Source of the DNA: Escherichia coli
GTDB taxonomy: Bacteria; Pseudomonadota; Gammaproteobacteria; Enterobacterales; Enterobacteriaceae
Assembly (NCBI RefSeq): GCF_044324875.1
Contig: NZ_CP172185.1
Length of the DNA stretch: 64,000 bases
Strand: one strand, 5' to 3'
This document shows positions 869 through 47,228 of the stretch, in pieces. A program made the position numbers and the translations under genes. Numbering within the stretch: position 1 is the stretch's first letter; each line of letters starts with the position of its first letter. The notes below the pieces were generated by a model. It did no database searches. It was not told the origin of the DNA and saw nothing but the letters and a program-made list of their open reading frames with translations.

Positions 869-958
869 GGAGAGATGCCGGAGCGGCTGAACGGACCGGT
901 CTCGAAAACCGGAGTGGGGGCAACTCCACCGGGGGTTCAAATCCCCCTCTCTCCGCCA
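869..958 (+). tRNA. serU: tRNA-Ser (anticodon CGA), 90 nt, long variable arm
   Basis: GGAGAGATGCCGGAGCGGCTGAACGGACCGGTCTCGAAAACCGGAGTGGGGGCAACTCCACCGGGGGTTCAAATCCCCCTCTCTCCGCCA. Anticodon stem CCGGT/ACCGG with loop CTCGAAA gives anticodon CGA. The variable arm differs from the attR copy by two compensatory changes. Confidence 0.9.
898..958 (+). repeat. attL core: 61 bp 3' portion of tRNA-Ser, directly repeated at 47168..47228 with 2 mismatches
   Basis: GGTCTCGAAAACCGGAGT[G/A]GGGGCAACTC[C/T]ACCGGGGGTTCAAATCCCCCTCTCTCCGCCA occurs at both ends of the phage-gene block. Integrase gene lies immediately inside. Confidence 0.75.
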
Positions 959-1003
959 AAATTCAATCACTTATACATCATTAAGTCAGTGACAAAAATC
1001 ACA

Positions 1004-1040
1004 CTTGGAATTACTTGGAATATTTTCTTGGAATATTTTC
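1004..1040 (+). promoter_or_regulatory. Three tandem direct repeats CTTGGAAT(A/T)TT next to attL; putative integrase arm-type binding sites
   Basis: CTTGGAATTA, CTTGGAATATTTTC, CTTGGAATATTTTC in tandem, overlapping the int stop codon. An inverted copy (TTATTCCAAG) lies near attR at about 47113..47124. Confidence 0.4.
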
Positions 1041-2036
1041 AGGTAACGGGACATCAAGTGTTGGTGAAACTTTAACCTTCCGGTCATAGATTAGCACTTG
1101 CCCTTCGGTTTTGTGACCAGAGAAAAGTTGCTTATCCCGGCTGCTTCCTTCATAGTCTGAAATTCCTTTCGCCTTCAGATCATGAAAGGTGAAGTCGGTT
1201 AAAATACCTGAAACTTTGCCTGCGCGATTTCTTGCTTCTACCCACATTTCGTTAAAGCCTTTGTACATATATCGGTTGCCGTATTGATTGCTGATCACAT
1301 AGGCGGATTTTGGTAACTGTTTTGCTTTTTCGACCGCTGCCTGTAATCGTGGACTCCATGCTTTTATCTGTTTTTTCCCTGTTTTCCCTTGCTGGATAAA
1401 GATCCCGTCGTTTCCAATCTGCTCCCATTTCAGCGATAACACATCGGAAACCCTCGCTGCACACAGATAGGCAATTTCCATTGCGATAAAAACAGGAAGG
1501 GGTGCCACGCTTAATACTGCCTGGTATTCTTTGTCGGTTACATATCGTTCGCGGTTTTTGGCCTTGAATTTACTTACTCCTGCACATGGGTTAGCCTTCA
1601 CGTACCCTCGCTCATACCCCCAACTGTAAACACGGGACATACTGCTTTTTTCATGGTTGGCTTGCGTTTTACTCTGTTCCCCTCTTTTGTCCATGTATCG
1701 ACGGATGTGTTCTGGTTTTATGGAATCCGCTGGTACCTTACCGAATACGGCAAGCAACTTTTTTTGATGTTGCAGATAATCTTTTTGTGTTCTTGGACTA
1801 AGGTCACTGTAACAGGCGCTGGCGAGGAATTTTTCCCACAAGCGACCGAATGTCATTGCACGATCGCGATTATTTACAGTTTCCTCATACTTTTTCCATA
1901 AAGCAGCTAAACCATCCTTGATGGCGGTTAGTGTTACAGATTCTCTGGATGTTGGTTTCCATACATAACTATATTTATTTGGGTATACATTTGGAGGTAA
2001 TTTTTCGTGTTCAGGATTTTTCCTTCGTCTTCCCAT
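1011..2036 (-). CDS. int: Tyrosine integrase, lambda Int family
   Basis: 341 aa ORF. N-terminus MGRRRKNPEHEKLPPNVY resembles lambda Int MGRRRSHERRDLPPNLY. Adjacent to the tRNA attachment site. Confidence 0.9.
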   Translation of the reverse strand: MGRRRKNPEHEKLPPNVYPNKYSYVWKPTSRESVTLTAIKDGLAALWKKYEETVNNRDRAMTFGRLWEKFLASACYSDLSPRTQKDYLQHQKKLLAVFGKVPADSIKPEHIRRYMDKRGEQSKTQANHEKSSMSRVYSWGYERGYVKANPCAGVSKFKAKNRERYVTDKEYQAVLSVAPLPVFIAMEIAYLCAARVSDVLSLKWEQIGNDGIFIQQGKTGKKQIKAWSPRLQAAVEKAKQLPKSAYVISNQYGNRYMYKGFNEMWVEARNRAGKVSGILTDFTFHDLKAKGISDYEGSSRDKQLFSGHKTEGQVLIYDRKVKVSPTLDVPLPENIPRKYSK

Positions 2037-2239
2037 CAGATCGCACCAAAATTCGGCTCTACCTCGCGTGGTGGTAAAGTTTTATTGCAGGTAAATAGAT
2101 CCCGGCTGACAATCGGTTTGCCACTACGATTGGTATAGAACGGAAGCCCGTTTTCCATTAACCATTTTCGCTGGTGGCTTGCATATTTGCAGCCCGTTAA
2201 TATTAGCAATTCATCTTCGGTTAAAAATAAGCTGCTCAT
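2036..2239 (-). CDS. xis: Excisionase-like protein (Xis)
   Basis: 67 aa ORF whose stop overlaps the int start. Small basic protein with a DNA-binding-like motif. Position is canonical for xis. Confidence 0.65.
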   Translation of the reverse strand: MSSLFLTEDELLILTGCKYASHQRKWLMENGLPFYTNRSGKPIVSRDLFTCNKTLPPREVEPNFGAI

Positions 2240-2255
2240 AGCTATATCTCATAAC

Positions 2256-2283
2256 CGCCGCTAACTATATGCGGTTAGCGGCG
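2256..2283. other. 10 bp perfect inverted repeat (CGCCGCTAAC...GTTAGCGGCG) between exonuclease and xis
   Basis: Stem-loop in the 58 bp gap between the two genes; no U-run, so not a simple terminator. Confidence 0.3.
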
Positions 2284-2297
2284 ATTAGGGTTGAACA

Positions 2298-4751
2298 TTA
2301 AAAATCAGCCTGATTCGGGATCAGTTTTTGTATAGTGGCTGTTACGTATTTTGCCTGGTGAAGAGCGTCATCCAGAGCATTATGGCGCACGCCTTCGAAT
2401 GGAATTACGCTTCTGGCATTGAAGTCTGTGATTTTCCCCATCTCAACGATTGTGCGTACATCACGATCGTTGCTGTAATGCCACGGACAGGGGATGTCCA
2501 GACGTTCGTATGAGGTGCGCAAAATTGCGTTATCGAACGTTGCGCCATTACCCCACACCTGAACGAATTTTTCATCAGAGTGTTCATTGACGAATTGCCG
2601 AAAACGCAAAAGGGCATCTTTCATTTTTACCTGGTCAGTTAAAATGGCAGCTCTGGCTTCGCTGGACTGCTTCAGCCACCATTCGATGGTGCCACCATCA
2701 GGAACAGCCCCTGTATTCATTGCGTCAGTCAGGCTGATAACGATATAAAATACCGGCCCGATTTCCCCTGTTTCCGGGTCGAAGAAAACCGCACCAATAA
2801 CTACTATGGGTGCATTGGTGTTGGCTCCCATTGTTTCAAGGTCGACTGACAGGTGATTCCATACTCTGCTGGTGGATGTGATTTCACGATGACCGTTCAT
2901 CTTAATTAAGGAATTTTCTGTTTCGCCAGTTTTATTATCGCTGGCGTGGCCCTGAGCGCCGCCAGTGTTCTCCTTGTGCGGATGCTCAGTGCCTTCCGTT
3001 TCCTCCGGATTTTTTTCCTGAGATTCAGCCTGATTTTCTCCATTGAATGTTTCCTGGTATGTTGCGTCACCCATTACTGAGCCACAATCAGGGCAGTTGC
3101 CGCCGCTGGTCTGACCGCAGGCGGTGCAGACTTTTTCCGGTTCCTGTTGCGCTACTGGCTCAGGTTGTTTCGTTTCTGGCTCGTTTTGTAACGCATTTTG
3201 GCTGTTTTGTTCCGCTTTCTGGTCGTTCTGTTCCGTTTCTTGCTGGTTCTGGTTCACTGAATCGCGAGTCTGGACTCCCTTAACCCATTTCAGATCATTC
3301 GGGTCGCTAATCCCTTCAACGAACTCACCACGCGAGGCCGCCAGTAATTTGTCTGCATCGACAGGATTTTTGGGCGGAATGTTTTTCCTAGCTTCATGGA
3401 GTTCTGCCCGCAGTTTCTGATATTTCGCATCAACAGAATTCACCTGCGGCTGAGCATCCAGCGGCTGCGTGTCCGGATGATGTTCAGTTGTATCCGGTTC
3501 CACTGTTTCAGTCGTTGGCTGTTCATCTGCCATTGCGCCAGACGGTTGCGGTTTTTCTTCATCATCCTGTTTTCCTTCTTCTGTTACACGCTGCGGCATT
3601 GGGGCAGAGGAACGACCGCAGGCAATATCCACGATTTCCGGATCAGGGTTGGCATGATCGGTTTCGGTCAGCACTTTATTCAAGTATTCGGTGACGCGCT
3701 GGGGCATAGCCTCTATACCAACCGGTGCTTCTTTCACGGAGGCAACCACGATGGCGCGGGAATAATCCATCCCGCCTGGCATGTTCAGAAAAGCCTTAAG
3801 GAAGACGGAGAAACAGGGATCATTTTCTGCGATAATTTCGTTAACACGTCTGGTATGTGAAGGATGCATGTTGTAAATATCCACATCCATCGAACGAGCC
3901 AGTTTTCCTGTAGCAACATCGAATGCCATTGACGCATTATCATGCACAAAACCTTCGCCGCGATCGGTAAGAATACCGCCGCCAGCGTTAGCGCCGGATG
4001 GTGTGCGACTGATGCGAGAAACACGATTTCCTTTCATCCACTCTTTTGTAAGCAGACCACGATCAGTGTAGTCAGCGTCCAGGTATGCTTCGATGAAGGA
4101 GGTCATCAGTCCCAGGTCTGAATTTACGGGGGCGGGAAAAACTTTGTCAGTGTCCCGCACCAGTTTGTACAAATCCCGAATCTCCAGCGGTTCGAGTTGC
4201 GCTGCTTTATTTGAGATGGCCAGCGCGGTAACGGCGGGAAGTTTTTCTTCCTGTGCGTTATGTAATGAGCGCAGTTCATCCCGCGAAACGTGCGTTACTG
4301 GTTTTTCGCCGCCGTGTTGCGCCAGCCAGCGAACAGGCAGAATCTGACCTGAAACCGGCAGAAGCATATTCTCCTCAATCTCAGTCATGTCTTCGCCATT
4401 AACATTGGTGTTGTCAGTGCTGGCTGGTTTGTCCTGCGCGGATGGCGGAGGCGCGATAAATATCATTGTGATGCCATCTTCGCCGCCTTTTTCATACCGG
4501 TTACAGAATTCGGTATCAAACACGCCTTCCGGTGGAAGGTCATCAACAACGGGCAAATGGACGCGAACAGGTTTTTTAAAGTCGTCTTCATCATAATCGT
4601 TATCATCCATTGCGGTAATGCAGCGGGAGATGGCAACAGATAATTTTTTTGCTGTAGTCCAGTAAAAACCACCTTTAATCCCAAGGCGTTTTCTGACTTT
4701 GTCATTTTTAGCTTCGCAATATAGCGCAAAAGTTTCTTTATCAGTGCTCAT
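2298..4751 (-). CDS. Large exonuclease with C-terminal DnaQ-like (DEDD) 3'-5' exonuclease domain; the type often annotated exodeoxyribonuclease VIII in E. coli prophages
   Basis: 817 aa ORF. C-terminal region has DLETMG...H...D motifs typical of DEDDh exonucleases. Central acidic/Gln-rich low-complexity region and an internal CxxC...CxxC zinc ribbon ([16 protein letters not shown]). Confidence 0.75.
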
Positions 4752-4870: not shown

Positions 4871-5092
4871 TCACCATGCCACCGCCTTTACAGGTAAACC
4901 ATCACGACCGAGGAAGACTTTAATCATGCGGTCAGTAATGCATGTTTTTGTAGTGAAATCACGGATATAAAGTTTTTGCTTTTCGATATTGTTTGCCGAG
5001 GCGATATATGTCCGGCCTTCGTAAATAACGTAATCGCCGGGAGTGACGCACTGGCGTGGTATTTCATCGGTTCCGAAGTGATGAGCAATCAT
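4871..5092 (-). CDS. Hypothetical small early protein (73 aa)
   Basis: ORF in the leftward early operon between the Rha-like gene and the exonuclease; no recognisable motif. Confidence 0.45.
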
Positions 5093-5137: not shown

Positions 5138-5692
5138 CTATTTAATACTCAGCAACTGCTCGACGGTCATATTTTTAATTGCGCCCCGGTTTATGAGAGT
5201 CCATCCCTGCTTTTCCAGATAAAAACGGAAAGTATCCAGAGTACAGACCAGTGCGCCATCAGGAACTGTTTCGGTGAATTTGATGTAGCCGTGTTCGTCG
5301 AAGCGGATAACCAGGGTGCGGCCATCACCCGGGATTATTTTGTCAGCGGGTGTGGTGTTATTCCGGCGCAGTTCTTCCTCCATGCGGTCGAACTCGGCAA
5401 TGTAGGCTTCCTTGAATGCAGCGGCCTTTTTGCCCGTGAAGCCCATCACAAGGAAAACGAAGCCGTTTTTGGTGATTTGGTACATTGGGAGTTTGCGTCC
5501 TGTTGAGTCGGTGTATTCGCTCGCCTTAAAATTAAGGGCAGTGAACTCAGCGGAGCAGTCCAGTAATTTTATTTTTTGGATAACATTGTCGTGACGCTTG
5601 CCAAAGAATTCCGCGATCGCAACAGACGTAGTGACAGCGCGACCATTTTCAATGGTTACGTCAGGGTGAGAAAGGGTAAGGGTAGTAGCCAT
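5138..5692 (-). CDS. Phage regulatory protein, Rha-like (185 aa from internal start)
   Basis: Track ORF 5138..5989; the ATG at 5692 is preceded by GGAGG with 8 nt spacing. Sequence from MATTLTLSHPDV...AIAEFFGKRHDNVIQKIKLL resembles the Rha family. A terminator-like hairpin sits inside the upstream extension. Confidence 0.65.
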   Translation of the reverse strand: MATTLTLSHPDVTIENGRAVTTSVAIAEFFGKRHDNVIQKIKLLDCSAEFTALNFKASEYTDSTGRKLPMYQITKNGFVFLVMGFTGKKAAAFKEAYIAEFDRMEEELRRNNTTPADKIIPGDGRTLVIRFDEHGYIKFTETVPDGALVCTLDTFRFYLEKQGWTLINRGAIKNMTVEQLLSIK

Positions 5693-5860
5693 AATGGCAG
5701 CCTCCACGTTGAGTATTGATAACTCACCACCGAGGCTTTCCACGACCATAATGGTGGTGAGACGTACAGGGGTGGAAATACCGGTCAACGTAGAACCCGG
5801 CCAGCCTTGCGGCTGCCCTGCACGCCCCACCATAATCTGAATGTGGCTGTGCTTCACGCA

Positions 5861-5884
5861 TAAAAAAACCGCCTGAGCGCGGTT
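5861..5884 (-). terminator. Rho-independent terminator-like hairpin on the minus strand
   Basis: Minus-strand AACCGC-GCTCAG-GCGGTT followed by a T-run; lies between dicF and the Rha-like gene. Confidence 0.5.
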
Positions 5885-6167
5885 GTGCGCTACGTTTGAC
5901 TTCGGGTTTCCACGCCCGGCACCCGGTTTATGAGGTGCAGGTGCACTATAATTCCACCCGTACTGGTTTTCAATAGCTACATTCAACATTTTCTCTTACC
6001 TTTCATCACCGAAGTGAACTTTGTTGATGCGGTGCCAGGTGCCTCCAGGTGACGTTAACCAGTTAACAATTAACGCCGGATACAGAGAATCCACCCATAA
6101 CTCTGTTTTTGGTTTTAACTGTTCCACGTGCGATCAGCCGCATTCACCACATCACAAAATTCACTTT

Positions 6168-6225
6168 AAAAAGGGCGGCAGAGCAGTCACGGAGTAAAAC
6201 TGATACCGCAAAACGTCACCAGAAA
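6168..6225 (-). ncRNA. dicF: DicF sRNA homolog (ftsZ-targeting sRNA of Qin-type prophages)
   Basis: Minus strand reads TTTCTGGTGACGTTTTGCGGTATCAGTTTTACTCCGTGACTGCTCTGCCGCCCTTTTT, nearly identical to the recalled K-12 DicF (one difference) and ending in its own terminator. Lies downstream of a DicA-like repressor as in Qin. Confidence 0.7.
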
Positions 6226-7121: not shown

Positions 7122-7406
7122 TTATGTTACAGGGAACTGTCGGCGGGTATGGACTACGTTTACTATTTCAATACTTGAGGTTGTCACGCGGTACAGAATT
7201 ATATAATTGGGGTGAGCCACAATCTCACGTAAGCCTGGCACTCTGTCGCTTGGGGGGTATAAATACGGATGTTCGGATAATGGCAGCACACACCCCCTTA
7301 ATCGCTGCCATAAGCGTTCTGCCGCATCTATGTCGAAACGAGCAATGTAACTAGTTATATCATCCAGGTCGGTATCTGCGCTTTCAGGCCATAACACAGG
7401 TAACAT
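7122..7406 (-). CDS. parE: ParE/RelE-superfamily toxin (ParE2-like) of a three-gene TA cassette
   Basis: 94 aa. N-terminal LWPESADTDLDDITSYIARFDIDAAERLWQRL and C-terminal IVAHPNYIILYRV fit the ParE pattern. Start abuts the stop of the upstream antitoxin. Confidence 0.8.
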   Translation of the reverse strand: MLPVLWPESADTDLDDITSYIARFDIDAAERLWQRLRGCVLPLSEHPYLYPPSDRVPGLREIVAHPNYIILYRVTTSSIEIVNVVHTRRQFPVT

Positions 7407-7598
7407 TTACTGTTCACTCCGTTCCTTGCGTATTTTAGCAAAGCGTTCTGCCATTCTGCGCTCAACTTCGTCATGGGGAATTGCTGGGCGCGGATCTGCA
7501 AGGCTTGCAGCTACTTTGGCTCGCAGCCATTCGTTGTAACTGTTTTCTTGTTCAATAGTTTCAAACTCAGAAACCATTGGTGAAAGGGCCGTATTCAT
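7407..7598 (-). CDS. paaA: PaaA2-like antitoxin (63 aa)
   Basis: ATG at 7598 preceded by GGAGG. MNTALSPMVSEFETIEQENSYNEWLRAKVAASLADPRPAIPHDEVERRMAERFAKIRKERSEQ resembles the recalled PaaA2 antitoxin of O157 prophage three-component systems. Confidence 0.7.
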   Translation of the reverse strand: MNTALSPMVSEFETIEQENSYNEWLRAKVAASLADPRPAIPHDEVERRMAERFAKIRKERSEQ

Positions 7599-7627
7599 GG
7601 CACACCTCCGTCTGTGTATGGTGGTCA

Positions 7628-8026
7628 TTATGCCCGATGCCCTTTCCGGGCAGCGAGCCATCTTTCAATTGTGCGATCCATTAACTCTTTTTTGTCTTTC
7701 ATCTCCTGAAGCATTTGCTCTTGATCTTCCTCTGGAAATGCCTCAAATGTTTGAAGTAGCTCCTTTTGCCTAGGAGTTATTTTTATTATATCTTGTATTC
7801 TGTCATTTTTTTCTTCATTTAACGGTAAGAAGAACCAATACTGAGGATATCCTGTTGCTTCAGATAGTTTATCTAGATTAGCTGCTGTAGGGCTTGAGAT
7901 ACCACAAACCCATCTTTGAACGGATTGTTGAGTAATGCCAATTCTGCGCGCAAGTTCTGCCTGGCTCCAGCCTGTTACCAACAAAAGCTTCCTAATTCTA
8001 AGAGCACTAATTTCGAGTACACCCAT
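7628..8026 (-). CDS. paaR: PaaR-like HTH regulator (DicA paralog); start uncertain (track ORF extends to 8101 from TTG)
   Basis: XRE-type HTH (GWSQAELARRIGITQQSVQRWVCG). C-terminal LTPRQKELLQTFEAFPEEDQEQMLQEMKDKKELM is paralogous to the C-terminus of the adjacent repressor. Sits directly upstream of the antitoxin-toxin pair. Confidence 0.6.
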   Translation of the reverse strand: MGVLEISALRIRKLLLVTGWSQAELARRIGITQQSVQRWVCGISSPTAANLDKLSEATGYPQYWFFLPLNEEKNDRIQDIIKITPRQKELLQTFEAFPEEDQEQMLQEMKDKKELMDRTIERWLAARKGHRA

Positions 8027-8060
8027 CTGATATATCTTGTTTTTAAGAGTATGCTTCCCA

Positions 8061-8432
8061 TCAGGCGCGGCGACCTTGCTGCGCCAACCAACGTGCGACA
8101 AAATCTTCCATTGCTTCTTTTTTGTTTCTTAGTTCTTTTATGATCTCTTGCTGTTCATTATCAGGAAATGCACTAAATATTTGTAGCAATTCCAGCTGGT
8201 TAGGGGTTAATGCTATAGCTCTTGATGATGGAGACTCTGTTATGTCTTCTGGCTCAATATCAAGATAACCCCCTGGCATCCCATATGTTTGTTCAATACG
8301 TCTAGCTGCTTTTTCGCCAAACGTAGCCTTACCGCTCATTAACTGAGATAAGTAACTTTTCTCTTTGGGTGGCAAAGTTCTGTCTTTGAACCACTCTTTG
8401 AGGCGTAAACGCCGAATCTCTCTTGTTTCCAT
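8061..8432 (-). CDS. dicA: Prophage immunity repressor, DicA-like (HTH_XRE)
   Basis: 123 aa. HTH (SYLSQLMSGKATFGEKAARRIEQTYG) and C-terminal LTPNQLELLQIFSAFPDNEQQEIIKELRNK resemble recalled Qin DicA. Divergent from the cro-like gene. Confidence 0.75.
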   Translation of the reverse strand: METREIRRLRLKEWFKDRTLPPKEKSYLSQLMSGKATFGEKAARRIEQTYGMPGGYLDIEPEDITESPSSRAIALTPNQLELLQIFSAFPDNEQQEIIKELRNKKEAMEDFVARWLAQQGRRA

Positions 8433-8535
8433 ACATGCATTATCTTTAGTAATTGCGAAATAAGCAAATACTTGACTGGTTTATTTAGTTACGTATAAAC
8501 TTTTGCTTGCACTAAAGTATGTTGAGATCGAAATC
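8433..8535. promoter_or_regulatory. Divergent immunity promoter/operator region between the repressor and cro-like genes
   Basis: Sigma70-like rightward promoter TTGACT (8472..8477), 16 bp spacer, TATAAA (8494..8499). Flanked by partially palindromic TTTAGTAA / ACTAAAG motifs that may be operators. Confidence 0.5.
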
Positions 8536-8823
8536 ATGACTCTAAAGGAATTCATCAAATCATTAAAAACTGGAGAAGCAAAAAAATTTGCTGCCAACCT
8601 TGGTGTGTCTCCGTCCTTCTTGTCTCAAATGGCATCTGGCAGTTCACCAGTGTCTCCTGTTCGTGCGTTAATGATAGAAGCAGAAACTGCAGGGCATGTT
8701 ACAAGAAGAGAGTTGAGGCCGAATGACTGGGATCTTATATGGCCGGAATACACCGGAATTACGCCCCCTTCAAGTCATAAATATGAGCTTAACACCAAAA
8801 AAGTTGATGGGGTTGATTCATGA
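8536..8823 (+). CDS. Cro-like regulator, YdaS/DicC-type HTH
   Basis: Internal ATG at 8536 of track ORF 8503..8823. Motif KFAANLGVSPSFLSQMASGSSPVSPVRALMIEAETAGHV resembles Rac YdaS. First rightward gene. Confidence 0.7.
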   Translation: MTLKEFIKSLKTGEAKKFAANLGVSPSFLSQMASGSSPVSPVRALMIEAETAGHVTRRELRPNDWDLIWPEYTGITPPSSHKYELNTKKVDGVDS

Positions 8824-9245
8824 AAATCAAACATGAGCACATCCGCATGGCGATGAATGCCTGGGCGCATCCGGACGGCGAAAAAGTACCGGCTGCGAAA
8901 ATTACCAAAGCGTATTTCGAACTGGGTATGACGTTCCCGGAACTGTACGACGACAGCCACCCTGAAGCCCTGGCGCGTAATACCCAGAAAATTTTCCGCT
9001 GGGTAGAGAAAGACACCCCTGATGCAGTTGAAAAAATTCAGGCGTTGTTACCAGCGATCGAAAAGGCAATGCCACCTTTGCTGGTGGCCAGAATGCGCAG
9101 CCACAGTTCAGCTTATTTTCGGGAGCTGGTGGAGATGCGGGAACGACTGGTGAGAGACGCTGATGATTTTGTCGCGGTGGCAATAGCTGGCTTCAACCAG
9201 ATCAACCGTGGTGGCCCGGCCGGAAATGCTGTGGCTGTGCATTGA
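8820..9245 (+). CDS. YdaT-like protein (proposed CII-like regulator in Rac-type prophages)
   Basis: 141 aa starting MKIKHEHI, as recalled for Rac YdaT; overlaps the cro-like stop (translational coupling). Confidence 0.7.
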   Translation: MKIKHEHIRMAMNAWAHPDGEKVPAAKITKAYFELGMTFPELYDDSHPEALARNTQKIFRWVEKDTPDAVEKIQALLPAIEKAMPPLLVARMRSHSSAYFRELVEMRERLVRDADDFVAVAIAGFNQINRGGPAGNAVAVH

Positions 9246-10387: not shown

Positions 10388-10393
10388 AGGATT

Positions 10394-37225: not shown

Positions 37226-37241
37226 CAGAAGGAACAACAGT

Positions 37242-38096: not shown

Positions 38097-40219
38097 TACC
38101 GGGCGATGTCATTGAAATCTGTGATGATGACTATGCCGGTATCAGCACCGGTGGTCGTGTGCTGGCGGTGAACAGCCAGACCCGGACGCTGACGCTCGAC
38201 CGTGAAATCACGCTGCCATCCTCCGGTACCACGCTGATAAGCCTGGTTGACGGAAGTGGCAATCCGGTCAGCGTGGAGGTTCAGTCCGTCACCGACGGCG
38301 TGAAGGTAAAAGTGAGCCGGGTTCCTGACGGCGTTGCCGAGTACAGCGTGTGGGGGCTGAAGCTGCCGACGCTGCGCCAGCGCCTGTTCCGCTGCGTGAG
38401 TATCCGTGAGAACGACGACGGCACGTATGCCATCACTGCCGTGCAGCATGTACCGGAAAAAGAGGGCATCGTGGATAACGGGGCACACTTTGACGGTGAC
38501 CAGAGCGGCACGGTGAATGGTGTCACGCCGCCAGCAGTGCAGCACCTGACTGTCGAAGTCACCGCAGACAGCGGGGAGTATCAGGTACTGGCCCGCTGGG
38601 ACACGCCGAAGGTGGTGAAAGGCGTGAGTTTCATGCTTCGCCTGACCGTGGCAGCGGATGACGGCAGTGAGCGGCTGGTCAGCACGGCCCGGACGACGGA
38701 AACCACATACCGCTTCAGGCAGCTGGCGCCGGGGAACTACAGGCTGACAGTCCGGGCAGTAAATGCCCGGGGGCAGCAGGGAGACCCGGCGTCGGTATCG
38801 TTCCGGATTGCCGCACCGGCAGCGCCGTCGCGGATTGAGCTGACGCCGGGCTATTTTCAGATAACCGCCACGCCGCATCTTGCCGTTTATGATCCGACGG
38901 TGCAGTTTGAGTTCTGGTTCTCGGAAAAGCGGATTACCGATATCAGGCAGGTTGAAACCACAGCCCGTTATCTTGGTACCGGAAGTCAGTGGCTTGTCTC
39001 CGGCCAGAATATTAAACCTGGCCATGATTATTACTTTTATATCCGCAGTGTTAACACTGTCGGTAAATCGGCATTCGTGGAGGCAGTCGGTCGGGCGAGT
39101 AATGATCCTGCCGGTTACCTTAATTTTTTCAGGGGGGCGATAAATAAAACGCATCTGGGACGGGAGATCAATGAACGCATTGATGCCTCTGCACGGCGCA
39201 CTGAAGTTGAGCAACTGGAGAATGCGATTAACCGCGAAATGACGCAGCTGGAGAATGCGATTAACCGCGAAATGACGCAGCTGGAGAAAGATGTGAGGCA
39301 GCGTGCGGAGCGTGATATCGCAGAGGTGACGAAAAAAATCACGGCGTCTGAAAACAGCATAACGGAACTGGTGGCGAAAAAGAGCGGTGAACAGTCGCTG
39401 GCCATTGCGAAAGTCGACAGGAAAGTTGACAGCGTGAGCAGTGAAATCCGGCAGACAGTAAGCAGGAGCACGGAGGAGAACAGCCGACAGATAGCGCAGG
39501 TCAGGCAGTATGTTGATGATAAAAGTGCGCAAATAAGTACTGTTGTGGCGAAAAAGAGCGGTGAACAGTCAATGGCCATTGCGGAAGTTGACAGAAAAGT
39601 TGACAGGATGGGCAGCGAAATCCGGCAGACAGTAAGCAGGAGCACGGAGGAGAACAGCCGACAGATAGCGCAGATCAGACAGTATGTTGATGATAAGGGA
39701 AGTCAGATCAAACAGAGCACGGATAAAAAACTGGGATCCTGGAATGCCAGCATTGAGCAGATACAGAAAGTTCAGGAGGACACGCGCCGGAACCTGAACA
39801 GCATGTGGGCTGTGAAGCTGCAGCAGACACGGGATGGACGTCTCTATATTGCAGGTATTGGTGCCGGAATCGAAAATACGTCTGACGGAATTCAGAGTCA
39901 GATCCTGATGCAGGCAGATCGTATTGCGATGATTAACCCGGAAAATGGCAATACAACACCTTTGTTTGTGGCTCAGGGTGATCAGCTGTTCATGAATGAT
40001 GTTTTCATGAAAAAACTGACCGTGGATTTTGCCAGAGTGACGGGAGATATCCGGTCAGATAATTTTCATTCCGGTAGTCCGGGGTGGCGTTTATCAAGAA
40101 ACGGCAGCCTTGAAATTAACTCAGGAAGGCCCGGCGCAGGCCGCCTGTTTTTCAATGGCGAGCGAATCGACGTATATGACGATAACAATGTGTTAAGAGT
40201 ACGACTGGGGAGACTGTAA
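38097..40219 (+). pseudogene. J: Host specificity protein J, C-terminal fragment (distal tip diverges from lambda and carries tandem duplications)
   Basis: Continues the lambda-J-like sequence [43 protein letters not shown]. Track ORF 38159..40219. Confidence 0.85.
39214..39718 (+). repeat. Tandem duplications inside the J distal region: 2 x 33 bp and 2 x about 174 bp
   Basis: CTGGAGAATGCGATTAACCGCGAAATGACGCAG twice ([11 protein letters not shown] x2). A larger unit starting GTGGCGAAAAAGAGCGGTGAACAGTC repeats at about 39371 and 39545 with about 90 percent identity. Confidence 0.7.
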
Positions 40220-40479
40220 TGTTCGGAGTCCGGGTATGGCGCAAAGGGCGCCTTGTGACACATGAAATAAACCCAACAGGGGTGCTGGATGTGATCACTG
40301 AAGGGACGGGGCAGCGTTCTTATACTCCTTTGCAGGGCTGGCGTCTGGAAGTCTGTTCACCGGCCATTCTGATTAACGGTCAGGGAAGTCATACCAGTGC
40401 CAGTGTATCCGGCTGGACAGTGCACTATGCCAACACAAGCTGGCTAAGACCCGTGCTGGTCATGATAAGGGGGATCTGA
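40219..40479 (+). CDS. Hypothetical protein (86 aa), translationally coupled to J
   Basis: Start overlaps the J stop (TAATG); no known motif. Confidence 0.5.
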   Translation: MFGVRVWRKGRLVTHEINPTGVLDVITEGTGQRSYTPLQGWRLEVCSPAILINGQGSHTSASVSGWTVHYANTSWLRPVLVMIRGI

Positions 40480-41141
40480 TGTTTGCACTTAAATTAACTG
40501 ATGAGCGGGGGAGAGAATGGATATCACCTGTTGCGCCGCCACTGAACCTTGTGCGCCGTTTTCATTTCACACTGAGTGCGCGTGATGCGGTGATGCAGTT
40601 TATCGACACCGGGGTGCCGACGAATTATCGTTGCGTGATTTTTATTAAACAGATAAGCGGTAATCAGTCCTTCCATGGTGAAATGGTTCAGCTTAACGGT
40701 ACCTGGCAGTATGACATTTTCAGCGCTGGTACAGGGCAGGAGCCGGGCATGGAACAGGACAGCACATATGTTGTTTATGTTTTTGCCAACATGGTGAATG
40801 TATGGCCGCAATGGGGAATACAGTTGTGCGACAGTCATGGCAGGGTGGTCTGGAACACGGAAATGCTGCCACTGGAAGTAAAAATGACGCGAATATGGGA
40901 AAAGGATGTACCGATCAGTGTGGGACATGATGTGGCCGTAATGCCGGGGTGTACCCAGTGGACGACAGTTCAGGAAGGGGAGAGTTATTACTGGTATACC
41001 GCCAGTTTTAATGCCAGAAACTCACAGTTATGGCGTCAGTCAACTTTTGCTGAAGATAACGTAGCGGCGCCCAATGATAATTCAGGTGTTGTTAATAACC
41101 TCTGTTATTACATAAATGCAGAAATTTATGATGCGTACTGA
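40479..41141 (+). CDS. Hypothetical protein (220 aa) downstream of J
   Basis: Start overlaps the previous stop (TGATG); Trp/Tyr-rich; no family recognised. Confidence 0.5.
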   Translation: MFALKLTDERGREWISPVAPPLNLVRRFHFTLSARDAVMQFIDTGVPTNYRCVIFIKQISGNQSFHGEMVQLNGTWQYDIFSAGTGQEPGMEQDSTYVVYVFANMVNVWPQWGIQLCDSHGRVVWNTEMLPLEVKMTRIWEKDVPISVGHDVAVMPGCTQWTTVQEGESYYWYTASFNARNSQLWRQSTFAEDNVAAPNDNSGVVNNLCYYINAEIYDAY

Positions 41142-41162
41142 TAGTTATGTTGAGGGCATGTA

Positions 41163-41408
41163 ATGAAAATAATCGTCTGCACTTTTTTGCTGTTTCTTGT
41201 ATCAGGTTGCGCGGGGTACCGTTCCGTTACGGAGAGAGTCCGGTGCACCGGTGTGCTGAGTCCCGGGGTTTTACAGCGAGCTTATACGGTAGATCTTACA
41301 GGGAAAATAGAAACGAAAAGCGGCACTGTGTATAAAGTATCAGCTCCGAGATTTTATGGTCAGTGGGTGAGTGAAGATATGTTTACGAAAGTTTCGTGCG
41401 TGAAGTAA
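41163..41408 (+). CDS. Small predicted lipoprotein (81 aa); possible Cor-like superinfection-exclusion protein
   Basis: MKIIVCTFLLFLVSGC lipobox; located between J and the side tail fibre, where cor-type genes sit in some lambdoid phages. Function is inferred from position only. Confidence 0.5.
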   Translation: MKIIVCTFLLFLVSGCAGYRSVTERVRCTGVLSPGVLQRAYTVDLTGKIETKSGTVYKVSAPRFYGQWVSEDMFTKVSCVK

Positions 41409-41483
41409 TCATAAAAACACCCGATTGTAAATGAATGACGACGCCCGCAATTTTGCGGGATTATTTTTATTTGTGGAGCGAGT

Positions 41484-42812
41484 ATGGCGGCTGTAAAAAT
41501 TTCAGGCGTGCTCAGGGACGGAACCGGAAAACCGGTACCGGGATGCATTATTGAGCTGAAAGCGAAGAGAACCAGCGAGACAGTCATCGCCACGACAGTG
41601 GCTTATGGCATGCCGGAAGAGACGGGGAGTTACAGTATGGATGTGGAGCCAGGAATATACAGGGTGACACTCAATACAGAAGGTTACCGTCCTTCGTATG
41701 TGGGAGATATCGTGGTCAGGGAGGATTCTTCACCGGGAACACTGAATAAATTTCTGATGGAGATGGAAGATGCTCCTTATTATCCGAAGGCGTTGTCAGA
41801 GCTGGAGGCTGTGGTGCAGTCCATACTGCACAGAGCAGAGTCCGCGGCATCTGAGGCGGAGGAAGCCCGGAAGCGAGCAGCATCTGCCCGGGGACCACGA
41901 GGAGAGAAAGGGGATACCGGCGCTCGTGGTGAAAGAGGCATTACCGGGCCACAGGGGCCAAAAGGTGAAACAGGAGCACGTGGCCCGGCAGGACCACAGG
42001 GACCAAAAGGTGAAACAGGTGAACGCGGTCCGGCAGGTCCACAGGGACCAAAGGGCGATACAGGTGAACGCGGCCCGGCAGGTCCACAGGGACCAAAAGG
42101 TGAAACAGGTGCACGTGGTCCGGAAGGTCCACAGGGAGCAAAAGGTGAAACAGGTGAACGCGGCCCGGCAGGTCCACAGGGAGCAAAGGGCGAAACAGGT
42201 GCACGTGGTCCGGAAGGCCCTCAGGGTCTGAAGGGAGAAAAGGGTGAGCGAGGAGAAAAAGGCCCTAAGGGGGATAAAGGAGATCCGGGAGGTCCACAGG
42301 GACCAAAAGGTGAAACAGGTGAACGTGGCCCGGCAGGTCCACAGGGACCAAAAGGTGAAACAGGTGAACGTGGCCCGGCAGGTCCACAGGGACCAAAGGG
42401 CGATACAGGTGAACGCGGTCCGGCAGGTCCACAGGGGCCAAGAGGGTATACAGGTGAACGCGGGCCGACAGGTCTACAGGGGCCAAGAGGGTATACAGGT
42501 GAACGCGGGCCGGCAGGTCCACAGGGGCCAAGAGGAGAAGCGGGGCGGCCAGCGAGCGTCGGAAGTGTTTATTCCGTGGGGTCTTATGTTCTGGGGATCA
42601 TAGAACGAAATCATGAGATAACAAATACCCGTCAAATACCCGGGTATCGTATCAGACAGGCCGTTATTGTGTCGTCGTCATCGGATAAACTTACAGATAT
42701 CCGCTTTTTATTTGGCAATCCTATGCTTGGTACATGGATGTTATGCACAACTAACATGGCGGTGAATAATATCAGTGGGACGATTTGGGGCCTGTTTCAG
42801 AGAATACTGTGA
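41484..42812 (+). CDS. stf: Side tail fibre protein with collagen-like Gly-X-Y repeats
   Basis: N-terminal tail-fibre domain ([63 protein letters not shown]) followed by about 70 G-X-Y triplets. Confidence 0.85.
41884..42546 (+). repeat. Collagen-like triplet repeat array (tandem about 45 bp units) within the tail fibre gene
   Basis: Repeated GGTCCACAGGGACCAAAAGGTGAAACAGGTGAACGCGGCCCGGCA-type units encoding [15 protein letters not shown]; explains the many antisense ORFs in the track here. Confidence 0.8.
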
Positions 42813-42827: not shown

Positions 42828-42950
42828 ATGAAGGTCGATAAAATCACGTCACCAGTGTGGGCTGACAGGGGTCATACGACCATAAACTGTATAGTGAAGT
42901 TTTCAGACGCGGAAACAGAATGTGTATTTACAGCAAGTGCGGATGATCCG
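42828..42950 (+). pseudogene. tfa: Tail fibre assembly protein, N-terminal 41 codons (interrupted by IS66-family insertion)
   Basis: ATG at 42828 with GGGGGAG RBS; MKVDKITSPVWADRGHTTINCIVKFSDAETECVFTASADDP then a stop inside the IS end. Confidence 0.6.
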
Positions 42951-43032
42951 TAACCGGCTCATTTAAACCGTCTGGTCTGTTTCCTCCGGCTCTACAAAAA
43001 TAATGTCCATCATTTTTAATGGACACTATCGT

Positions 43033-43680
43033 ATGAAACACCGGACCTGGATCACTGAAGCTTTACGTCTTCACTTTGAAGAACATTTACCCCGGGTTGT
43101 GGCCGGGCGTCGCCTGGGTGTACCAAAATCAACAGTTTGTAGTATGTTCGTGCGCTTTCGGAGAGCTGGCCTTTCGTGGCCTTTGCCCGCAGGCATGTCG
43201 GAGCAGGAACTTGATGCCTGCCTTTACGGACAATTTTCCACGGTACCAGTCGTACGTCCTGAAAGCACCGTTATATCCGAAGCCCCCGTGGTAAAAAAAC
43301 GTCCCCGGCGGCCCAACTTCCCTTATGAGTTTAAAATCGCCTTAGTGGAGCAGTCACTGCAGCCCGGAGCCTGTGTGGCGCAGATCGCCCGGGAAAACGG
43401 AATCAACGATAACCTGCTCTTCAACTGGCGCCATCAATACCGGAAAGGTGGCCTGCTGCCTTCCGGAAAAAATATGCCGGCACTGCTTCCCGTGACGTTA
43501 ACGCCGGAGCCGGATAATAAAATCCCGGCCCCCGCACAGGAACCAGAGCAGATAAATACACCGTCCGACAGTCTGTGTTGTGAGCTGGTTCTGCCGGCCG
43601 GAACTCTCAGGCTTAAAGGTAAACTGACGCCGGCGTTATTACAGACACTTATCCGCGAAATAAAAGGGAGCAGCCACTGA
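43033..43680 (+). CDS. tnpA: IS66-family accessory protein TnpA (orf1)
   Basis: Internal Met of track ORF 43003..43680; HTH-like N-terminus. Confidence 0.7.
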   Translation: MKHRTWITEALRLHFEEHLPRVVAGRRLGVPKSTVCSMFVRFRRAGLSWPLPAGMSEQELDACLYGQFSTVPVVRPESTVISEAPVVKKRPRRPNFPYEFKIALVEQSLQPGACVAQIARENGINDNLLFNWRHQYRKGGLLPSGKNMPALLPVTLTPEPDNKIPAPAQEPEQINTPSDSLCCELVLPAGTLRLKGKLTPALLQTLIREIKGSSH

Positions 43681-44027
43681 TGATATCTCTCCCTGCAGGT
43701 TCGCGTATCTGGCTGGTTGCAGGTATCACCGATATGCGAAATGGCTTTAACGGCCTGGCATCAAAAGTTCAGAACGTCCTGAAGGATGACCCGTTCTCCG
43801 GACACCTGTTCATCTTCCGCGGACGCCGGGGTGACCAGATAAAAGTGTTGTGGGCTGACAGTGACGGACTGTGCCTCTTCACCAAACGCCTGGAGCGGGG
43901 CCGCTTCGTCTGGCCAGTCACCCGTGACGGCAAGGTGCACCTTACTCCGGCTCAGTTATCCATGCTTCTTGAAGGTATCAACTGGAAGCACCCGAAACGA
44001 ACGGAACGCGCTGGAATCCGCATATAA
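43680..44027 (+). CDS. tnpB: IS66-family TnpB (orf2)
   Basis: 115 aa; MISLPAGSRIWLVAGITDMRNGFNGLASKVQNVLKDDPFSGHLFIFRGRRGDQIKVLWAD is the typical IS66 Orf2. Confidence 0.85.
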   Translation: MISLPAGSRIWLVAGITDMRNGFNGLASKVQNVLKDDPFSGHLFIFRGRRGDQIKVLWADSDGLCLFTKRLERGRFVWPVTRDGKVHLTPAQLSMLLEGINWKHPKRTERAGIRI

Positions 44028-44046
44028 CCCGTTGTAAAGTGAGGAT

Positions 44047-45618
44047 ATGGACACCTCACTTGCTCATGAGAACGCCCGCCTGCGGGCACTGTTGCAGACG
44101 CAACAGGACACCATCCGCCAGATGGCTGAATACAACCGCCTGCTCTCACAGCGGGTGGCGGCTTATGCTTCCGAAATCAACCGGCTGAAGGCGCTGGTTG
44201 CGAAACTGCAACGTATGCAGTTCGGTAAAAGCTCAGAAAAACTTCGTGCAAAAACCGAACGGCAGATACAGGAAGCACAGGAGCGAATCAGCGCACTTCA
44301 GGAAGAAATGGCGGAAACGCTGGGTGAGCAATATGACCCGGTACTGCCATCCGCCCTGCGCCAGTCTTCAGCCCGTAAACCGTTACCGGCCTCACTTCCC
44401 CGTGAAACCCGGGTTATCCGGCCGGAAGAGGAATGCTGTCCTGCCTGTGGTGGTGAACTCAGTTCTCTGGGATGTGATGTGTCAGAGCAACTGGAGCTTA
44501 TCAGCAGCGCCTTTAAGGTTATCGAAACACAACGTCCGAAACAGGCCTGTTGCCGGTGCGACCATATCGTGCAGGCACCAGTACCTTCAAAACCCATTGC
44601 ACGCAGTTATGCCGGAGCGGGGCTTCTGGCCCATGTTGTCACCGGGAAATATGCAGACCATCTGCCGTTATACCGCCAGTCAGAAATATACCGTCGTCAG
44701 GGAGTGGAGCTGAGCCGTGCCACACTGGGGCGCTGGACAGGTGCTGTTGCTGAACTGCTGGAGCCGCTGTATGACGTCCTGCGCCAGTATGTGCTGATGC
44801 CCGGTAAAGTCCATGCTGATGATATCCCCGTCCCGGTCCAGGAGCCGGGCAGCGGTAAAACCCGGACAGCCCGGCTGTGGGTCTACGTCCGTGATGACCG
44901 TAACGCCGGTTCACAGATGCCCCCGGCGGTCTGGTTCGCGTACAGTCCGGACCGGAAAGGTATCCATCCACAAAATCACCTGGCCGGTTACAGCGGTGTG
45001 CTTCAGGCCGATGCTTACGGTGGTTACCGGGCGTTATACGAATCCGGCAGAATAACGGAAGCCGCGTGTATGGCTCATGCCCGGAGAAAAATCCACGATG
45101 TGCATGCAAGAGCGCCCACCTACATCACCACGGAAGCCCTGCAGCGTATCGGTGAACTGTATGCCATCGAGGCAGAGGTCCGGGGCTGTTCAGCAGAACA
45201 GCGTCTGGCGGCAAGAAAAGCCAGAGCCGCGCCACTGATGCAGTCACTGTATGACTGGATACAGCAACAGATGAAAACACTGTCGCGTCACTCAGATACG
45301 GCAAAAGCGTTCGCATACCTGCTGAAACAGTGGGATGCACTGAACGTGTACTGCAGTAATGGCTGGGTGGAAATCGACAACAACATCGCAGAGAACGCCT
45401 TACGGGGAGTGGCCGTAGGCCGGAAAAACTGGATGTTCGCGGGTTCCGACAGCGGTGGTGAACATGCGGCGGTGTTGTACTCGCTGATCGGCACATGCCG
45501 TCTGAACAATGTGGAGCCAGAAAAGTGGCTGCGTTACGTCATTGAACATATCCAGGACTGGCCGGCAAACCGGGTACGCGATCTGTTGCCCTGGAAAGTT
45601 GATCTGAGCTCTCAGTAA
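44047..45618 (+). CDS. tnpC: IS66-family transposase TnpC (orf3)
   Basis: 523 aa with N-terminal coiled coil, Cys cluster CPACGG...CCRCDH, and DDE-type core. Confidence 0.85.
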
Positions 45619-45648
45619 ATATCAATACGGTTCTGACGAGTCGCTTAC

Positions 45649-46110
45649 GATGATCCTGAGTCTTACGGTCGTGAAATATTTGAAGCCTGCATAAGAGGTG
45701 ATGCAGGGCCGGTAGGTGAGTACCGGGCAAATGATGATATGGCTGTGGAAGAAGCACGCAGGATGAAAAACGCGGAGATAAATGCCTGGCGTGATGCGAT
45801 GGAGGCGTCAGGGTATGTTTTTGAGCACAGAGGACGGAAATGGGATTATGGAAAGGAAACCATGACACGTCTTGGAATGTCGGCATCAGCGGCCAGAGGC
45901 GGTGTGTTGCCGGAAGGATTTTTCTGGACGGACGCAGAGAATAATGATGTACCGATGACGGCAGATGAACTGATATCCCTGAGTGATGCTGCTGGTAAAG
46001 CGATGTTCAGGAAAGGCCTTGAAATACATATAAGGCAAAGGGAGATGAAAAAGGCAATAGCAGAACTGAGTGACAGTGAAACCATTCTGGCGTACAGGGT
46101 TGGATGGTGA
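45649..46110 (+). pseudogene. tfa: Tail fibre assembly protein, C-terminal fragment
   Basis: In frame with the N-terminal fragment once the IS and one TSD copy are removed (..ADDPESYGREIFEACIRGDAGPVGEY..); track ORF 45739..46110. Confidence 0.6.
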
Positions 46111-46127
46111 AACTGATAAAAAAACCC

Positions 46128-46160
46128 CTCTGAAAATTCTGTCAGAGGGGGGCAAGGATC
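46128..46160. terminator. 9 bp perfect hairpin CCCCTCTGA/TCAGAGGGG with flanking A-run (T-run on minus strand)
   Basis: Located just after tfa; geometry favours minus-strand termination. Confidence 0.4.
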
Positions 46161-46336
46161 TATATTTATTATGCGGTAATGCTTTCACTCCGGTAATTAA
46201 TTTCAGTGATTAACTGCTTTCGATCAATAAAGGAATTGCAAAAAGGTGATCTTGTTCACGACATTGTGGATGATAATATGCCTGATGTCTGAATCCGGAA
46301 ACAGTGATCTGGCGGGTTTCATGTGAAGTTGACGGA

Positions 46337-46368
46337 TAAAAAATCCGCACGACCAGACAGACGTGCGG
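46337..46368 (-). terminator. Rho-independent terminator downstream of the ykgJ-like gene
   Basis: CCGCACG-loop-CGTGCGG hairpin, followed on the minus strand by a T-run. Confidence 0.5.
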
Positions 46369-46475
46369 TTTACGAAATTCGTAACAAGAGGCTTTTCTAG
46401 GGATCACGTGGTGCGTGCCACGTGAAATTTTTGTAGCGCAAAATGTGTAATGTGTAAATACAAGGAAGGAAAAAG

Positions 46476-46805
46476 TTAAATCGGTGGAAGTCCATACCGG
46501 GAACGTGCACGGTTACATGCTTCGTTTTCAATACCATTTTCACCAGACATGGCAAATTCCCGGCACGTTGATGAACGGTTTTCGTAGATGGTACAGCTCG
46601 CTTCTTTACCTGGTGTTCCTGCAAGGGCAATACATCTGGGGTTTTTCTGGTTTGTACCGATCATGCATCGGTGCAAAGGCGATACTTGTTCAGTAAGTCT
46701 GGCTGGAATGGTGCCGCCAGCATCGTCGGCTTCGGCCCAGTAAAAAGAGACGCGGAAAAATGCACAACAGGCACCACACGTTATGCATGGATTTGGATTG
46801 CTCAT
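46476..46805 (-). CDS. YkgJ-family (UPF0153) Cys-rich putative metal-binding protein; cargo gene at the prophage right end
   Basis: [31 protein letters not shown]...[16 protein letters not shown] closely resembles recalled E. coli YkgJ (CxxCGxCC motif). Confidence 0.75.
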
Positions 46806-47167
46806 AATTCACCACAGCTATAAATTATAAAGAAAACCGCAGCATGTCGTATGCAAGAACGTGCTGCAGCTGGCTGGTTAACTTTCGATAGTGCGAGTAT
46901 TGAATGATTTCCAGCCGTTACCGATTTTATATAACTGCAGTGGAATTATTCAACACAGGCAAAACGGAATAAGCTGAGAAAAAAGCGTACTTTCCCAATC
47001 TGGGGCAAATCACGTCTGAATGACACCTGACAACAGATGGTGGCCTCAAGAAGGCTTGGAATATTCTTCTTTAATGTTATGTAAATTATTGATTTTTCGT
47101 GTACGATTTTAAGACATTTATTCCAAGAAAAATTTTTAACTCTTTGATTTTTCGACTCTGTATCATC

Positions 47168-47228
47168 GGTCTCGAAAACCGGAGTAGGGGCAACTCTACC
47201 GGGGGTTCAAATCCCCCTCTCTCCGCCA
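47168..47228 (+). repeat. attR: partial 3' copy of tRNA-Ser with the host-type variable arm
   Basis: GGTCTCGAAAACCGGAGTAGGGGCAACTCTACCGGGGGTTCAAATCCCCCTCTCTCCGCCA; lacks the tRNA 5' half. Confidence 0.75.

Follow-up and report, generated by a model that had tools for sequence, protein, structure and literature searches.

A lambda-like prophage in serU of Escherichia coli, its probable contribution to the rebuilt tRNA-Ser(CGA) and its interruption by two insertion sequences

The 64,000-nucleotide stretch of Escherichia coli DNA analysed here (contig NZ_CP172185.1 of RefSeq assembly GCF_044324875.1; "the window" below means this whole stretch) carries an intact tRNA-Ser gene near its left end and, on the far side of a block of phage genes, a second copy of the 3' part of that gene which differs from the first by one base pair of the variable arm. 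We wondered which of the two copies had belonged to the host, where in the tRNA gene phage and host DNA were joined, and whether the phage enclosed between them is still whole. We hold with high confidence that the block is a lambda-like prophage inserted into serU by Int, its integrase, that the compensatory base pair was brought in by the phage, and that two insertion sequences (IS) entered the prophage later.

A single tRNA is found in the window by ARAGORN, and Rfam agrees: a tRNA-Ser with anticodon CGA at 869-958. A repeat search of the window returned a 62-nt direct repeat (897-958 and 47167-47228; 97% identity, two mismatches) which corresponds to the 3' two-thirds of this tRNA and brackets 46.2 kb of phage DNA. 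The initial annotation had recognised both tRNA-Ser 3' copies, which are real, and measured them at 61 bp, one base too short. The mismatches lie at 916 (G in the left copy, A in the right) and at 927 (C in the left, T in the right); the two positions pair with one another in the variable-arm stem, as G-C in the left copy and as A-U in the right, and both copies give the same cloverleaf. This bears out the earlier description of an intact left tRNA with a phage-type arm carrying two compensatory substitutions, and of an orphan right copy of the host type.

869-958, + strand: hybrid tRNA-Ser(CGA) gene, serU (ARAGORN; Rfam tRNA, 57 bits), cloverleaf fold kept
897-958, strand not given: attL core, 62 bp common to attR (repeat search, alignment with empty sites)
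47167-47228, strand not given: attR core, an orphan 3' serU segment whose variable arm is of the host type (A..T)

Window positions 1-958 were joined to 47229-49228 as a synthetic empty site, which was searched against 5426 complete E. coli genomes. It was matched as one unbroken piece in 3756 of them, the best being strain EFF60 at 99.8% identity; the genes at the empty site are annotated as mtfA, tRNA-Ser and zinT in EFF60 and in BW25113. In the remaining genomes the match is broken at query position 897/898, that is at the same core, or at 945. In HM670, one of the genomes with the 945 break, the 3' end of the serU copy is followed by a stacked island that resembles an integrative and conjugative element (ICE) and has another type of integrase. 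At least two integrase types thus use serU, elements can stack there, and serU is a shared landing site. The HM670 island (406-aa integrase, type IV pilus and Tra genes) adjoins the zinT flank (fetched locus L023, 4616-6000), and the serU-core match in this genome begins at core position 945.

Profile searches with PHROGs and NCBIfam found phage or IS DNA throughout the interval between the repeats. A chance match is ruled out by the empty sites, and the two repeats are the true attL and attR: alignment to the prophage-free serU locus confirmed both junctions and, with them, the earlier claim that the tRNA-derived repeats bound strain-variable DNA. The locus has the tRNA 3'-end repeats, the joined attB in other genomes, the integrase and recombination directionality factor genes at att and, on IMG/VR contigs, the attP form that characterise a prophage integrating into a tRNA gene. 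serU is documented as a site of lambdoid prophages in Shiga toxin-producing E. coli (STEC; PMC7067040, PMC8767318), and GenBank holds a 'SerU-LTIIb' phage record (KU052038).

The origin of the variable base pair was read from its distribution over the four kinds of att site. The A..T form occurs in the empty sites of EFF60 and K-12 BW25113 and in the right copy of the window, and the G..C form in the left tRNA of the window and in TUM1886 (NZ_CP128970.1, ~2,100,168-2,140,500), whose serU prophage is the closest relative found (98-99% identical over 67-71% of the element). We scanned IMG/VR for attP with a pattern made of the P-arm end, the core with N at both variable positions, and the P'-arm start. 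Seven contigs matched, 7/7 carry G..C, and each encodes an Int 98-99% identical to that of the window. This supports the claim of the initial annotation that the variable arm of the int-proximal tRNA is phage-derived. In a table of 18 att sites, 16 from fetched loci plus attL and attR of the window, attB is A..T (2), attL is G..C (5), attR is A..T (4) and attP is G..C (7): the allele tracks the right-hand arm (P' or B') in 18/18 sites and never the left arm.

Because the allele tracks the right-hand arm, the exchange must fall to the left of 916, and because attP and attB diverge at 896 it must fall to the right of that position. The crossover is thereby bounded to the 19 bp from 897 to 915, which hold the anticodon stem-loop (stem CCGGT/ACCGG, loop CTCGAAA). 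The anticodon-arm part of the core had already been proposed as its place, and the seven attP contigs and the co-segregation in 18 att sites bear this out. By analogy with other tRNA-targeting lambda-type integrases, the 7-bp overlap may be the anticodon loop itself.

The course of events that we propose is the following. A temperate lambda-like phage (959-47166) would have entered by Int-mediated site-specific recombination between host serU and an attP bearing a copy of the last 62 tRNA bases. Strand exchange in the anticodon stem-loop (897-915) would have fused the host 5' part to the phage 3' part, so that an intact tRNA was rebuilt beside int (attL) and the displaced host 3' part was left orphaned at the far end (attR); the left and right copies would differ because the phage copy has one compensatory base pair change in the variable arm. 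Two insertion sequences would have been acquired after integration, one of the IS21 family in J and one of the IS66 family in the gene that follows the side tail fibre. Past the CCA end, ~16 bases are still alike between the phage P' arm (959-975) and the host B' flank (47229-47245), the stretches compared being AAAT-TCAATCACTTAT and CTTTATCAATGACTTAT, respectively; capture of the phage tRNA fragment itself from a serU-like locus is suggested.

In 1178 of 5425 E. coli records, O157:H7 included, the best match is to the exact 90-nt G..C tRNA; ~22% of complete E. coli genomes thus have G-C in place of the variable-arm A-U. That so many records carry this very tRNA argues indirectly that the hybrid works: with its cloverleaf and pairing kept and its allele common, the hybrid tRNA-Ser(CGA) is putatively functional. 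One could go further and suppose that, in rewriting the host tRNA-Ser(CGA), lysogeny by this phage family confers a selected, phage-encoded trait and not a neutral hitch-hiker, provided that the phage allele alters the stability of the tRNA, its serylation or its sensitivity to a tRNA-targeting nuclease; we think this very unlikely.

The integrase gene and its surroundings have the lambda arrangement.

1011-2036, - strand: integrase, 341 aa, lambda-Int family (PDB 1z1b, E 9.5e-13; phrog_1)
2036-2239, - strand: excisionase-like protein (DUF4224), 67 aa (phrog_1266, E 3e-21; name given in TUM1886 by the Prokaryotic Genome Annotation Pipeline, PGAP)
1004-1037, + strand: P' arm, in which candidate arm-type Int sites lie (CTTGGAATATT starting at 1014 and at 1027, a variant at 1004)
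47055-47065, + strand: candidate P-arm arm-type Int site, the third and last CTTGGAATATT copy in the window

The window Int aligns end to end with lambda Int (PDB code 1z1b), including the arm-binding N-terminus MGRRR...LPPN, and is 100% identical to the TUM1886 and IHE3034 copies. Its gene lies 53 bp from the attL core, the P' arm overlaps its stop codon, and the xis-like gene is upstream of it. With up to one mismatch allowed, the 11-mer CTTGGAATATT has only three occurrences in the window, each beside an att core, and these repeats are candidate arm-type Int sites. The closest clusters of Int homologues (89-99% identity) come from Logan assemblies only and have no NCBI protein record. A synthetic attP query of the phage collection found no true attP in it; it returned attR-type remnants with host flank in ev099, mEp332 and PhiR70_1. 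In these isolated phages the junction, ~2.4 kb from their own integrase (ev099 and mEp332 being fetched loci L009 and L010, 2590-2850), joins the P arm and an A..T serU core to the E. coli DNA downstream of serU, and it may be what an imprecise excision from serU left behind long ago. The vB_Eco*-R* 'phage' records were rejected as free phage or attP, being prophage predictions with host flanks (mtfA, tRNA-Asn) that add attL examples only; PhiR49_2, with similar heads and tails and a different integrase, was likewise set aside for att.

Aligning the window with the TUM1886 prophage at the same site revealed two insertions, which together account for ~5.3 kb of the 46.2 kb.

34032-35457, + strand: 5' fragment of J (phrog_31, central tail fiber J), collinear with the TUM1886 J to 35457
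35458-38098, + strand: IS21-family element, 2641 bp, istA and istB, 4-bp target-site duplication (TSD) CCGG
38099-40219, + strand: 3' fragment of J, collinear with the TUM1886 J
42828-46110, + strand: DUF4376 gene that follows the side tail fibre, interrupted (its C-terminal part matches phrog_11571)
42950-45648: IS66-family element, 2699 bp, tnpA, tnpB and tnpC, within the DUF4376 gene, 8-bp TSD GATGATCC

The first has the transposase and IstB of the IS21 family (NF033546, 284 bits; NF038214, 257 bits) and multiple terminal inverted repeats. It splits J into a 5' open reading frame (ORF) of 480 aa, with 475 J codons, and a 3' fragment; in silico removal of the element and of one CCGG restores a 1180-aa J ORF. 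A group II intron as the 2.6-kb J insert was rejected, there being no Rfam intron match and clear IstA and IstB matches. The second has matches above cut-off to NF038385, NF033819 and NF033517, bears the ends GTAACCG and GTAAGCG, and is typical of the IS66 family; its removal in silico restores a 191-aa DUF4376 ORF.

The prophage thus falls short of the complete phage gene set that the initial annotation had credited it with: not all essential morphogenesis genes are intact, J and the DUF4376 gene being interrupted. That it is nevertheless complete, fully inducible and productive of infectious phage we judge highly improbable. All modules are present, int and xis are intact, and apart from the two genes just named each checked gene is uninterrupted with full-length family matches; but J is split by the 2641-bp IS21-family element and the DUF4376 gene by the 2699-bp IS66-family element, and lambda J is essential for tail-tip assembly and adsorption. 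The element is probably defective as a phage and unable to make infectious particles. Excision, on the other hand, is probably still within its reach: both int and xis are intact, and elsewhere attP forms have identical Int genes beside them. The excision and lysis functions look intact.

Two further explanations touch the origin of the base pair and of the 46 kb. The G..C pair could be a later change of the integrated host tRNA, through two successive mutations or gene conversion, and would then be no guide to where the crossover took place; the copies differ at just two positions, and compensatory mutation in a lineage is possible in principle. Yet 7/7 attP contigs already carry G..C though the search pattern left both positions free, 5/5 attL sites are G..C while 4/4 attR and 2/2 attB sites are A..T, and the exact allele is found in 1178 records of diverse lineages, which leaves this origin scarcely credible. 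The 46 kb could also be two elements stacked at serU, a prophage and a separate island at its right end, as happens in HM670, where the ICE-like island with its own integrase lies between prophage and zinT. Here, however, there is one integrase and one pair of att cores, with neither a third serU-core copy nor a second integrase found inside 959-47166; as far as attR, the genes at the right end (side tail fibre, DUF4376, ykgJ) follow the order of the single prophage in TUM1886, and the sole extra DNA is the two IS elements. We give stacking next to no chance.

Several observations do weigh against the course of events proposed above. Residues R195, K218, H285, H308 and Y317 are present in Int, but the equivalent of lambda R311 is K288 (motif FHDLKAK); the window Int does not carry the canonical catalytic set R-K-H-R-H-Y, although the fold and family assignment holds (PF00589 on homologues), and the Lys at the lambda Arg311 position could lower activity. 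PGAP calls the identical int 'frameshifted' in TUM1886 and IHE3034. The crossover is resolved to a 19-bp interval only, and the exact mosaic (immunity, replication and Q regions with both IS) is present in 0/5426 complete E. coli genomes, because of which its recent history is untraceable.

The first two of these points have answers. In 20 aligned homologues with identities as low as 56%, among them proteins of E. albertii, Salmonella, Dickeya, Sodalis and Gilliamella, K288 is invariant; it is therefore a subfamily trait and not a lesion. Cre R292K is active, and a natural Lys at the second-Arg position is rare but known (PMC2943603); an Int inactivated by Lys at this position was rejected on both grounds. 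A truncated or frameshifted int was rejected because the 341-aa ORF is present and its C-terminus (...NIPxKYSK) is kept in homologues down to 56% identity; since, in addition, the protein is 100% identical in three genomes, we treat int as intact. The 'frameshifted' label spans the window equivalent of 986-2036 (2986-4036 in fetched locus L003 and 2486-3536 in L005), and the alternative int frame arises within a 13-bp tandem repeat at the int 3' end, which contains CTTGGAATATT.

The prophage presents the full lambdoid order, int-xis, recombination, repressor-cro, replication, Q, lysis, packaging-head and tail (PHROGs, NCBIfam), and together with the empty-site matches this upholds the earlier reading of a lambdoid prophage in serU. 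The early region contains the following features.

2298-4751, - strand: RecE-like exonuclease (phrog_607/phrog_294 pair with Kil; 69% to Rac RecE)
4871-5092, - strand: Kil (88% to Rac KilR; phrog_607/phrog_294 pair with the exonuclease)
5138-5989, - strand: Rha/anti-repressor-like regulator (TIGR02681 phage_pRha, 121.6 bits; phrog_995)
5750-5837, - strand: C4 RNA motif in the 5' part of the Rha-like ORF (Rfam, 78.6 bits)
5862-5938, - strand: isrK RNA motif in the 5' part of the Rha-like ORF (Rfam, 67.1 bits)
6173-6224, - strand: DicF small RNA (Rfam RF00039, 67.3 bits; gathering score 48)
7122-7406, - strand: RelE/ParE-like toxin (weak RelE_StbE match)
7407-7661, - strand: RelB-family antitoxin (NF050103 RelB antitoxin, 84.6 bits)
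7628-8101, - strand: helix-turn-helix (HTH) repressor-like gene, DicA-like (phrog_5736)
8061-8432, - strand: paralogous HTH repressor-like gene, in tandem (phrog_5736)
8503-8823, + strand: Cro/YdaS-like regulator (phrog_35/phrog_163 pair with the YdaT-family gene)
8820-9245, + strand: YdaT-family protein (phrog_35/phrog_163 pair with the Cro/YdaS-like gene; 31% to Rac YdaT)
9317-12344, + strand: replication module (initiator, DnaC-like loader, DUF1627 protein, DUF977 protein)
9317-10387, + strand: replication initiator (phrog_3729 full-length match, and phrog_50 in the module)
10394-11140, + strand: DnaC-like loader (PRK12377, 485.6 bits; 83% to Rac YdaV)

The two repressor genes face the divergent Cro/YdaS-like and YdaT-family genes. 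Their translations share a C-terminal domain of ~50 aa and differ in the N-terminal HTH regions. They score 58.9 and 30.9 bits against the NCBIfam DicA model NF007257, below its cut-off of 101, and in tblastn neither matches Qin DicA or Rac RacR. The immunity and replication regions had been called Qin/Rac-like, with DicA among their genes: the early genes are indeed Rac-like, with DicF, YdaS-like and YdaT-family members present, while the repressors are not DicA orthologues. Neither repressor has a LexA-type peptidase domain, so induction is presumably via an anti-repressor. The C4 and isrK motifs lie back to back, resembling the RNA-controlled anti-repressor modules of the P1 immI and Gifsy isrK types.

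Cargo genes follow replication and recur at the right end.

12550-14753, both strands: cargo block (QueH, hok/sok, lipoprotein, ParE-like/ParD)
12550-13215, + strand: QueH (PGAP name in TUM1886)
13283-13457, strand not given: sok RNA (Rfam, 114.9 bits)
13395-13607, + strand: hok (95% to Qin HokD)
13712-14095, - strand: lipoprotein
14128-14753, - strand: ParE-like/ParD pair (ParD TIGR02606, 52.8 bits)
46476-46805, - strand: YkgJ-family cysteine-cluster protein (PGAP name in the 98.6%-identical TUM1886 region)

The queH gene, between the replication genes and hok/sok, encodes epoxyqueuosine reductase, a tRNA-modification enzyme, and is also found in the TUM1886 and IHE3034 prophages. A PADLOC scan of the cargo ORFs detected no defence system, and no virulence or defence genes were recognised in the window prophage.

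The late genes run rightwards.

15100-16158, + strand: YdfU/DUF968 protein (phrog_96; 77% to Qin YdfU)
16159-16524, + strand: RusA (phrog_34/phrog_753 pair with the antiterminator)
16521-17111, + strand: Q-like antiterminator (phrog_34/phrog_753 pair with RusA)
17511-19399, + strand: lysis cassette of class II holin, YdfR-like protein, endolysin and Rz spanin (PHROG matches)
19442-25380, + strand: packaging and head genes, namely HNH endonuclease, TerS, TerL, portal, protease and major capsid protein (PHROG matches)
25457-31646, + strand: neck, major tail protein, G/T chaperones and tape measure, HK97-like (PHROG matches)
31639-33971, + strand: tail-tip genes M, L, K and I, lambda-like (PHROG matches)
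40219-42812, + strand: small ORFs of 86 and 220 aa, then the side tail fibre at 41484-42812 (phrog_425, phrog_366)

We compared the modules directly against Rac, Qin, HK97 and lambda. The holin is of the class II type (71 aa, 83% to Qin EssQ; PGAP names its homologue 'class II holin'), and the endolysin, hydrophobic at its N-terminus, shares 94% identity with Qin RrrQ. Of the 'phage-21 lysis' label in the initial annotation, the class II type of the 71-aa holin stands, whereas the genes themselves are closest to Qin, the holin at 83% to EssQ and the endolysin as an RrrQ allele; the comparison with phage 21 itself serves as a lead only. The major capsid protein (TIGR01554, 349.1 bits; cut-off 27.5) and the prohead protease (TIGR01543, 94.5 bits; cut-off 59) place the head in the HK97 family, with 28% identity to phage HK97 for TerL, portal and protease and 24% for the capsid protein, the last two over partial alignments. 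Identity to HK97 gp7-gp14 is 50-79% for the neck, major tail protein and chaperones, and the tape measure is 46% identical to that of HK97. Identity to lambda is 92% for L, 77% for K and for I, 43% for M, and 96% and 89% for the two J fragments. 'HK97 head, lambda tail', as the element had been summarised, is too coarse: the head is at 24-28% to HK97, the neck and tail tube are HK97-like, and only L to J are lambda-like. By these comparisons the prophage is a mosaic of modules widespread among E. coli prophages: its early region is Rac-like, hok, ydfU and the lysis genes are Qin-like, the head is of the HK97 family, the neck and tube resemble those of HK97, and the tail tip resembles that of lambda.

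Repeats are present in J and in the side tail fibre gene. The 3' fragment of J contains a tandem duplication of 152 nt (39371-39696; copies 93% identical, 174-bp spacing) that probably encodes repeated tail-tip protein domains. The side tail fibre has 45-bp collagen-like tandem units at 41811-42634 (13 overlapping registers), and its ORF of 442 aa is one unit shorter than the 457 aa of TUM1886.

The TUM1886 prophage shares with this one the site, the identical 341-aa Int and the G..C attL, and further relatives occur in IHE3034, HM670 and other extraintestinal pathogenic E. coli (ExPEC); a large ExPEC prophage group has the same int at ~94% DNA identity. The 98-99% identity to TUM1886 spans int-exo-kil-rha, the lysis-head-tail region and the right end. 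Unlike the window prophage, that of TUM1886 is without both IS elements, has an intact 1180-aa J, and carries another immunity region (ydfABC, other repressors), other replication genes, another Q and an extra DNA methyltransferase. When the element was searched for by halves in the 5426 complete E. coli genomes, coverage of neither half reached 80% in any record.

The serU prophages of STEC (O145:H28, O121:H19, O157:H7) and SerU-LTIIb occupy the same chromosomal site and have the same attR (P arm, 62-bp A..T core, host flank); their cargo is a type III secretion system effector or LT-II toxin, whereas that of the window is QueH, hok/sok and two toxin-antitoxin pairs. With lambda the element shares the end-to-end Int alignment, xis upstream of int, repeated candidate arm sites flanking the core, and a tail tip 77-96% identical from L to J. 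However, lambda attB is intergenic between gal and bio whereas the target here is a tRNA gene rebuilt by a 62-bp core, the window Int is 22% identical with Lys for Arg311, and the head, neck and tail tube are not lambda-like. Kil, RecE and YdaV resemble Rac, and HokD, YdfU, EssQ and RrrQ resemble Qin, with DicF RNA also present; Rac and Qin differ in integrases and sites (ttcA and ydfJ), and the window prophage keeps full head and tail modules. The order HNH-TerS-TerL-portal-protease-capsid is that of HK97, as are the family models matched by the capsid protein and protease, while in tail tip, int/att, immunity and lysis modules the two phages have no relationship.

In the host flank, K-12 and TUM1886 have yodB (cytochrome b) between serU and zinT; the window (47229-47900) and EFF60 lack it, a host-backbone indel directly beside attR. 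A porin gene (54677-55900, - strand) lies in the only stretch unaligned to TUM1886 (54692-55760), and the flank also holds the rseX small RNA (56182-56271, - strand; 95 bits).

Prophages in serU are already known, and the element of the window adds one more, with nothing to surprise a specialist in phage or E. coli genomics. For annotation, the prophage should be described as defective (J::IS21-family, DUF4376::IS66-family), and it should be noted that in TUM1886 and IHE3034, the two RefSeq (PGAP) genomes looked at, the intact integrase of this serU family is labelled 'frameshifted'. With its 1178 E. coli records, the serU allele of the phage type is a simple marker of current occupancy by the window-type Int family. 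Though of little importance beyond annotation, the locus is a clean worked example of how a tRNA-targeting phage rebuilds its target gene, and of how a polymorphism in the core maps the crossover.

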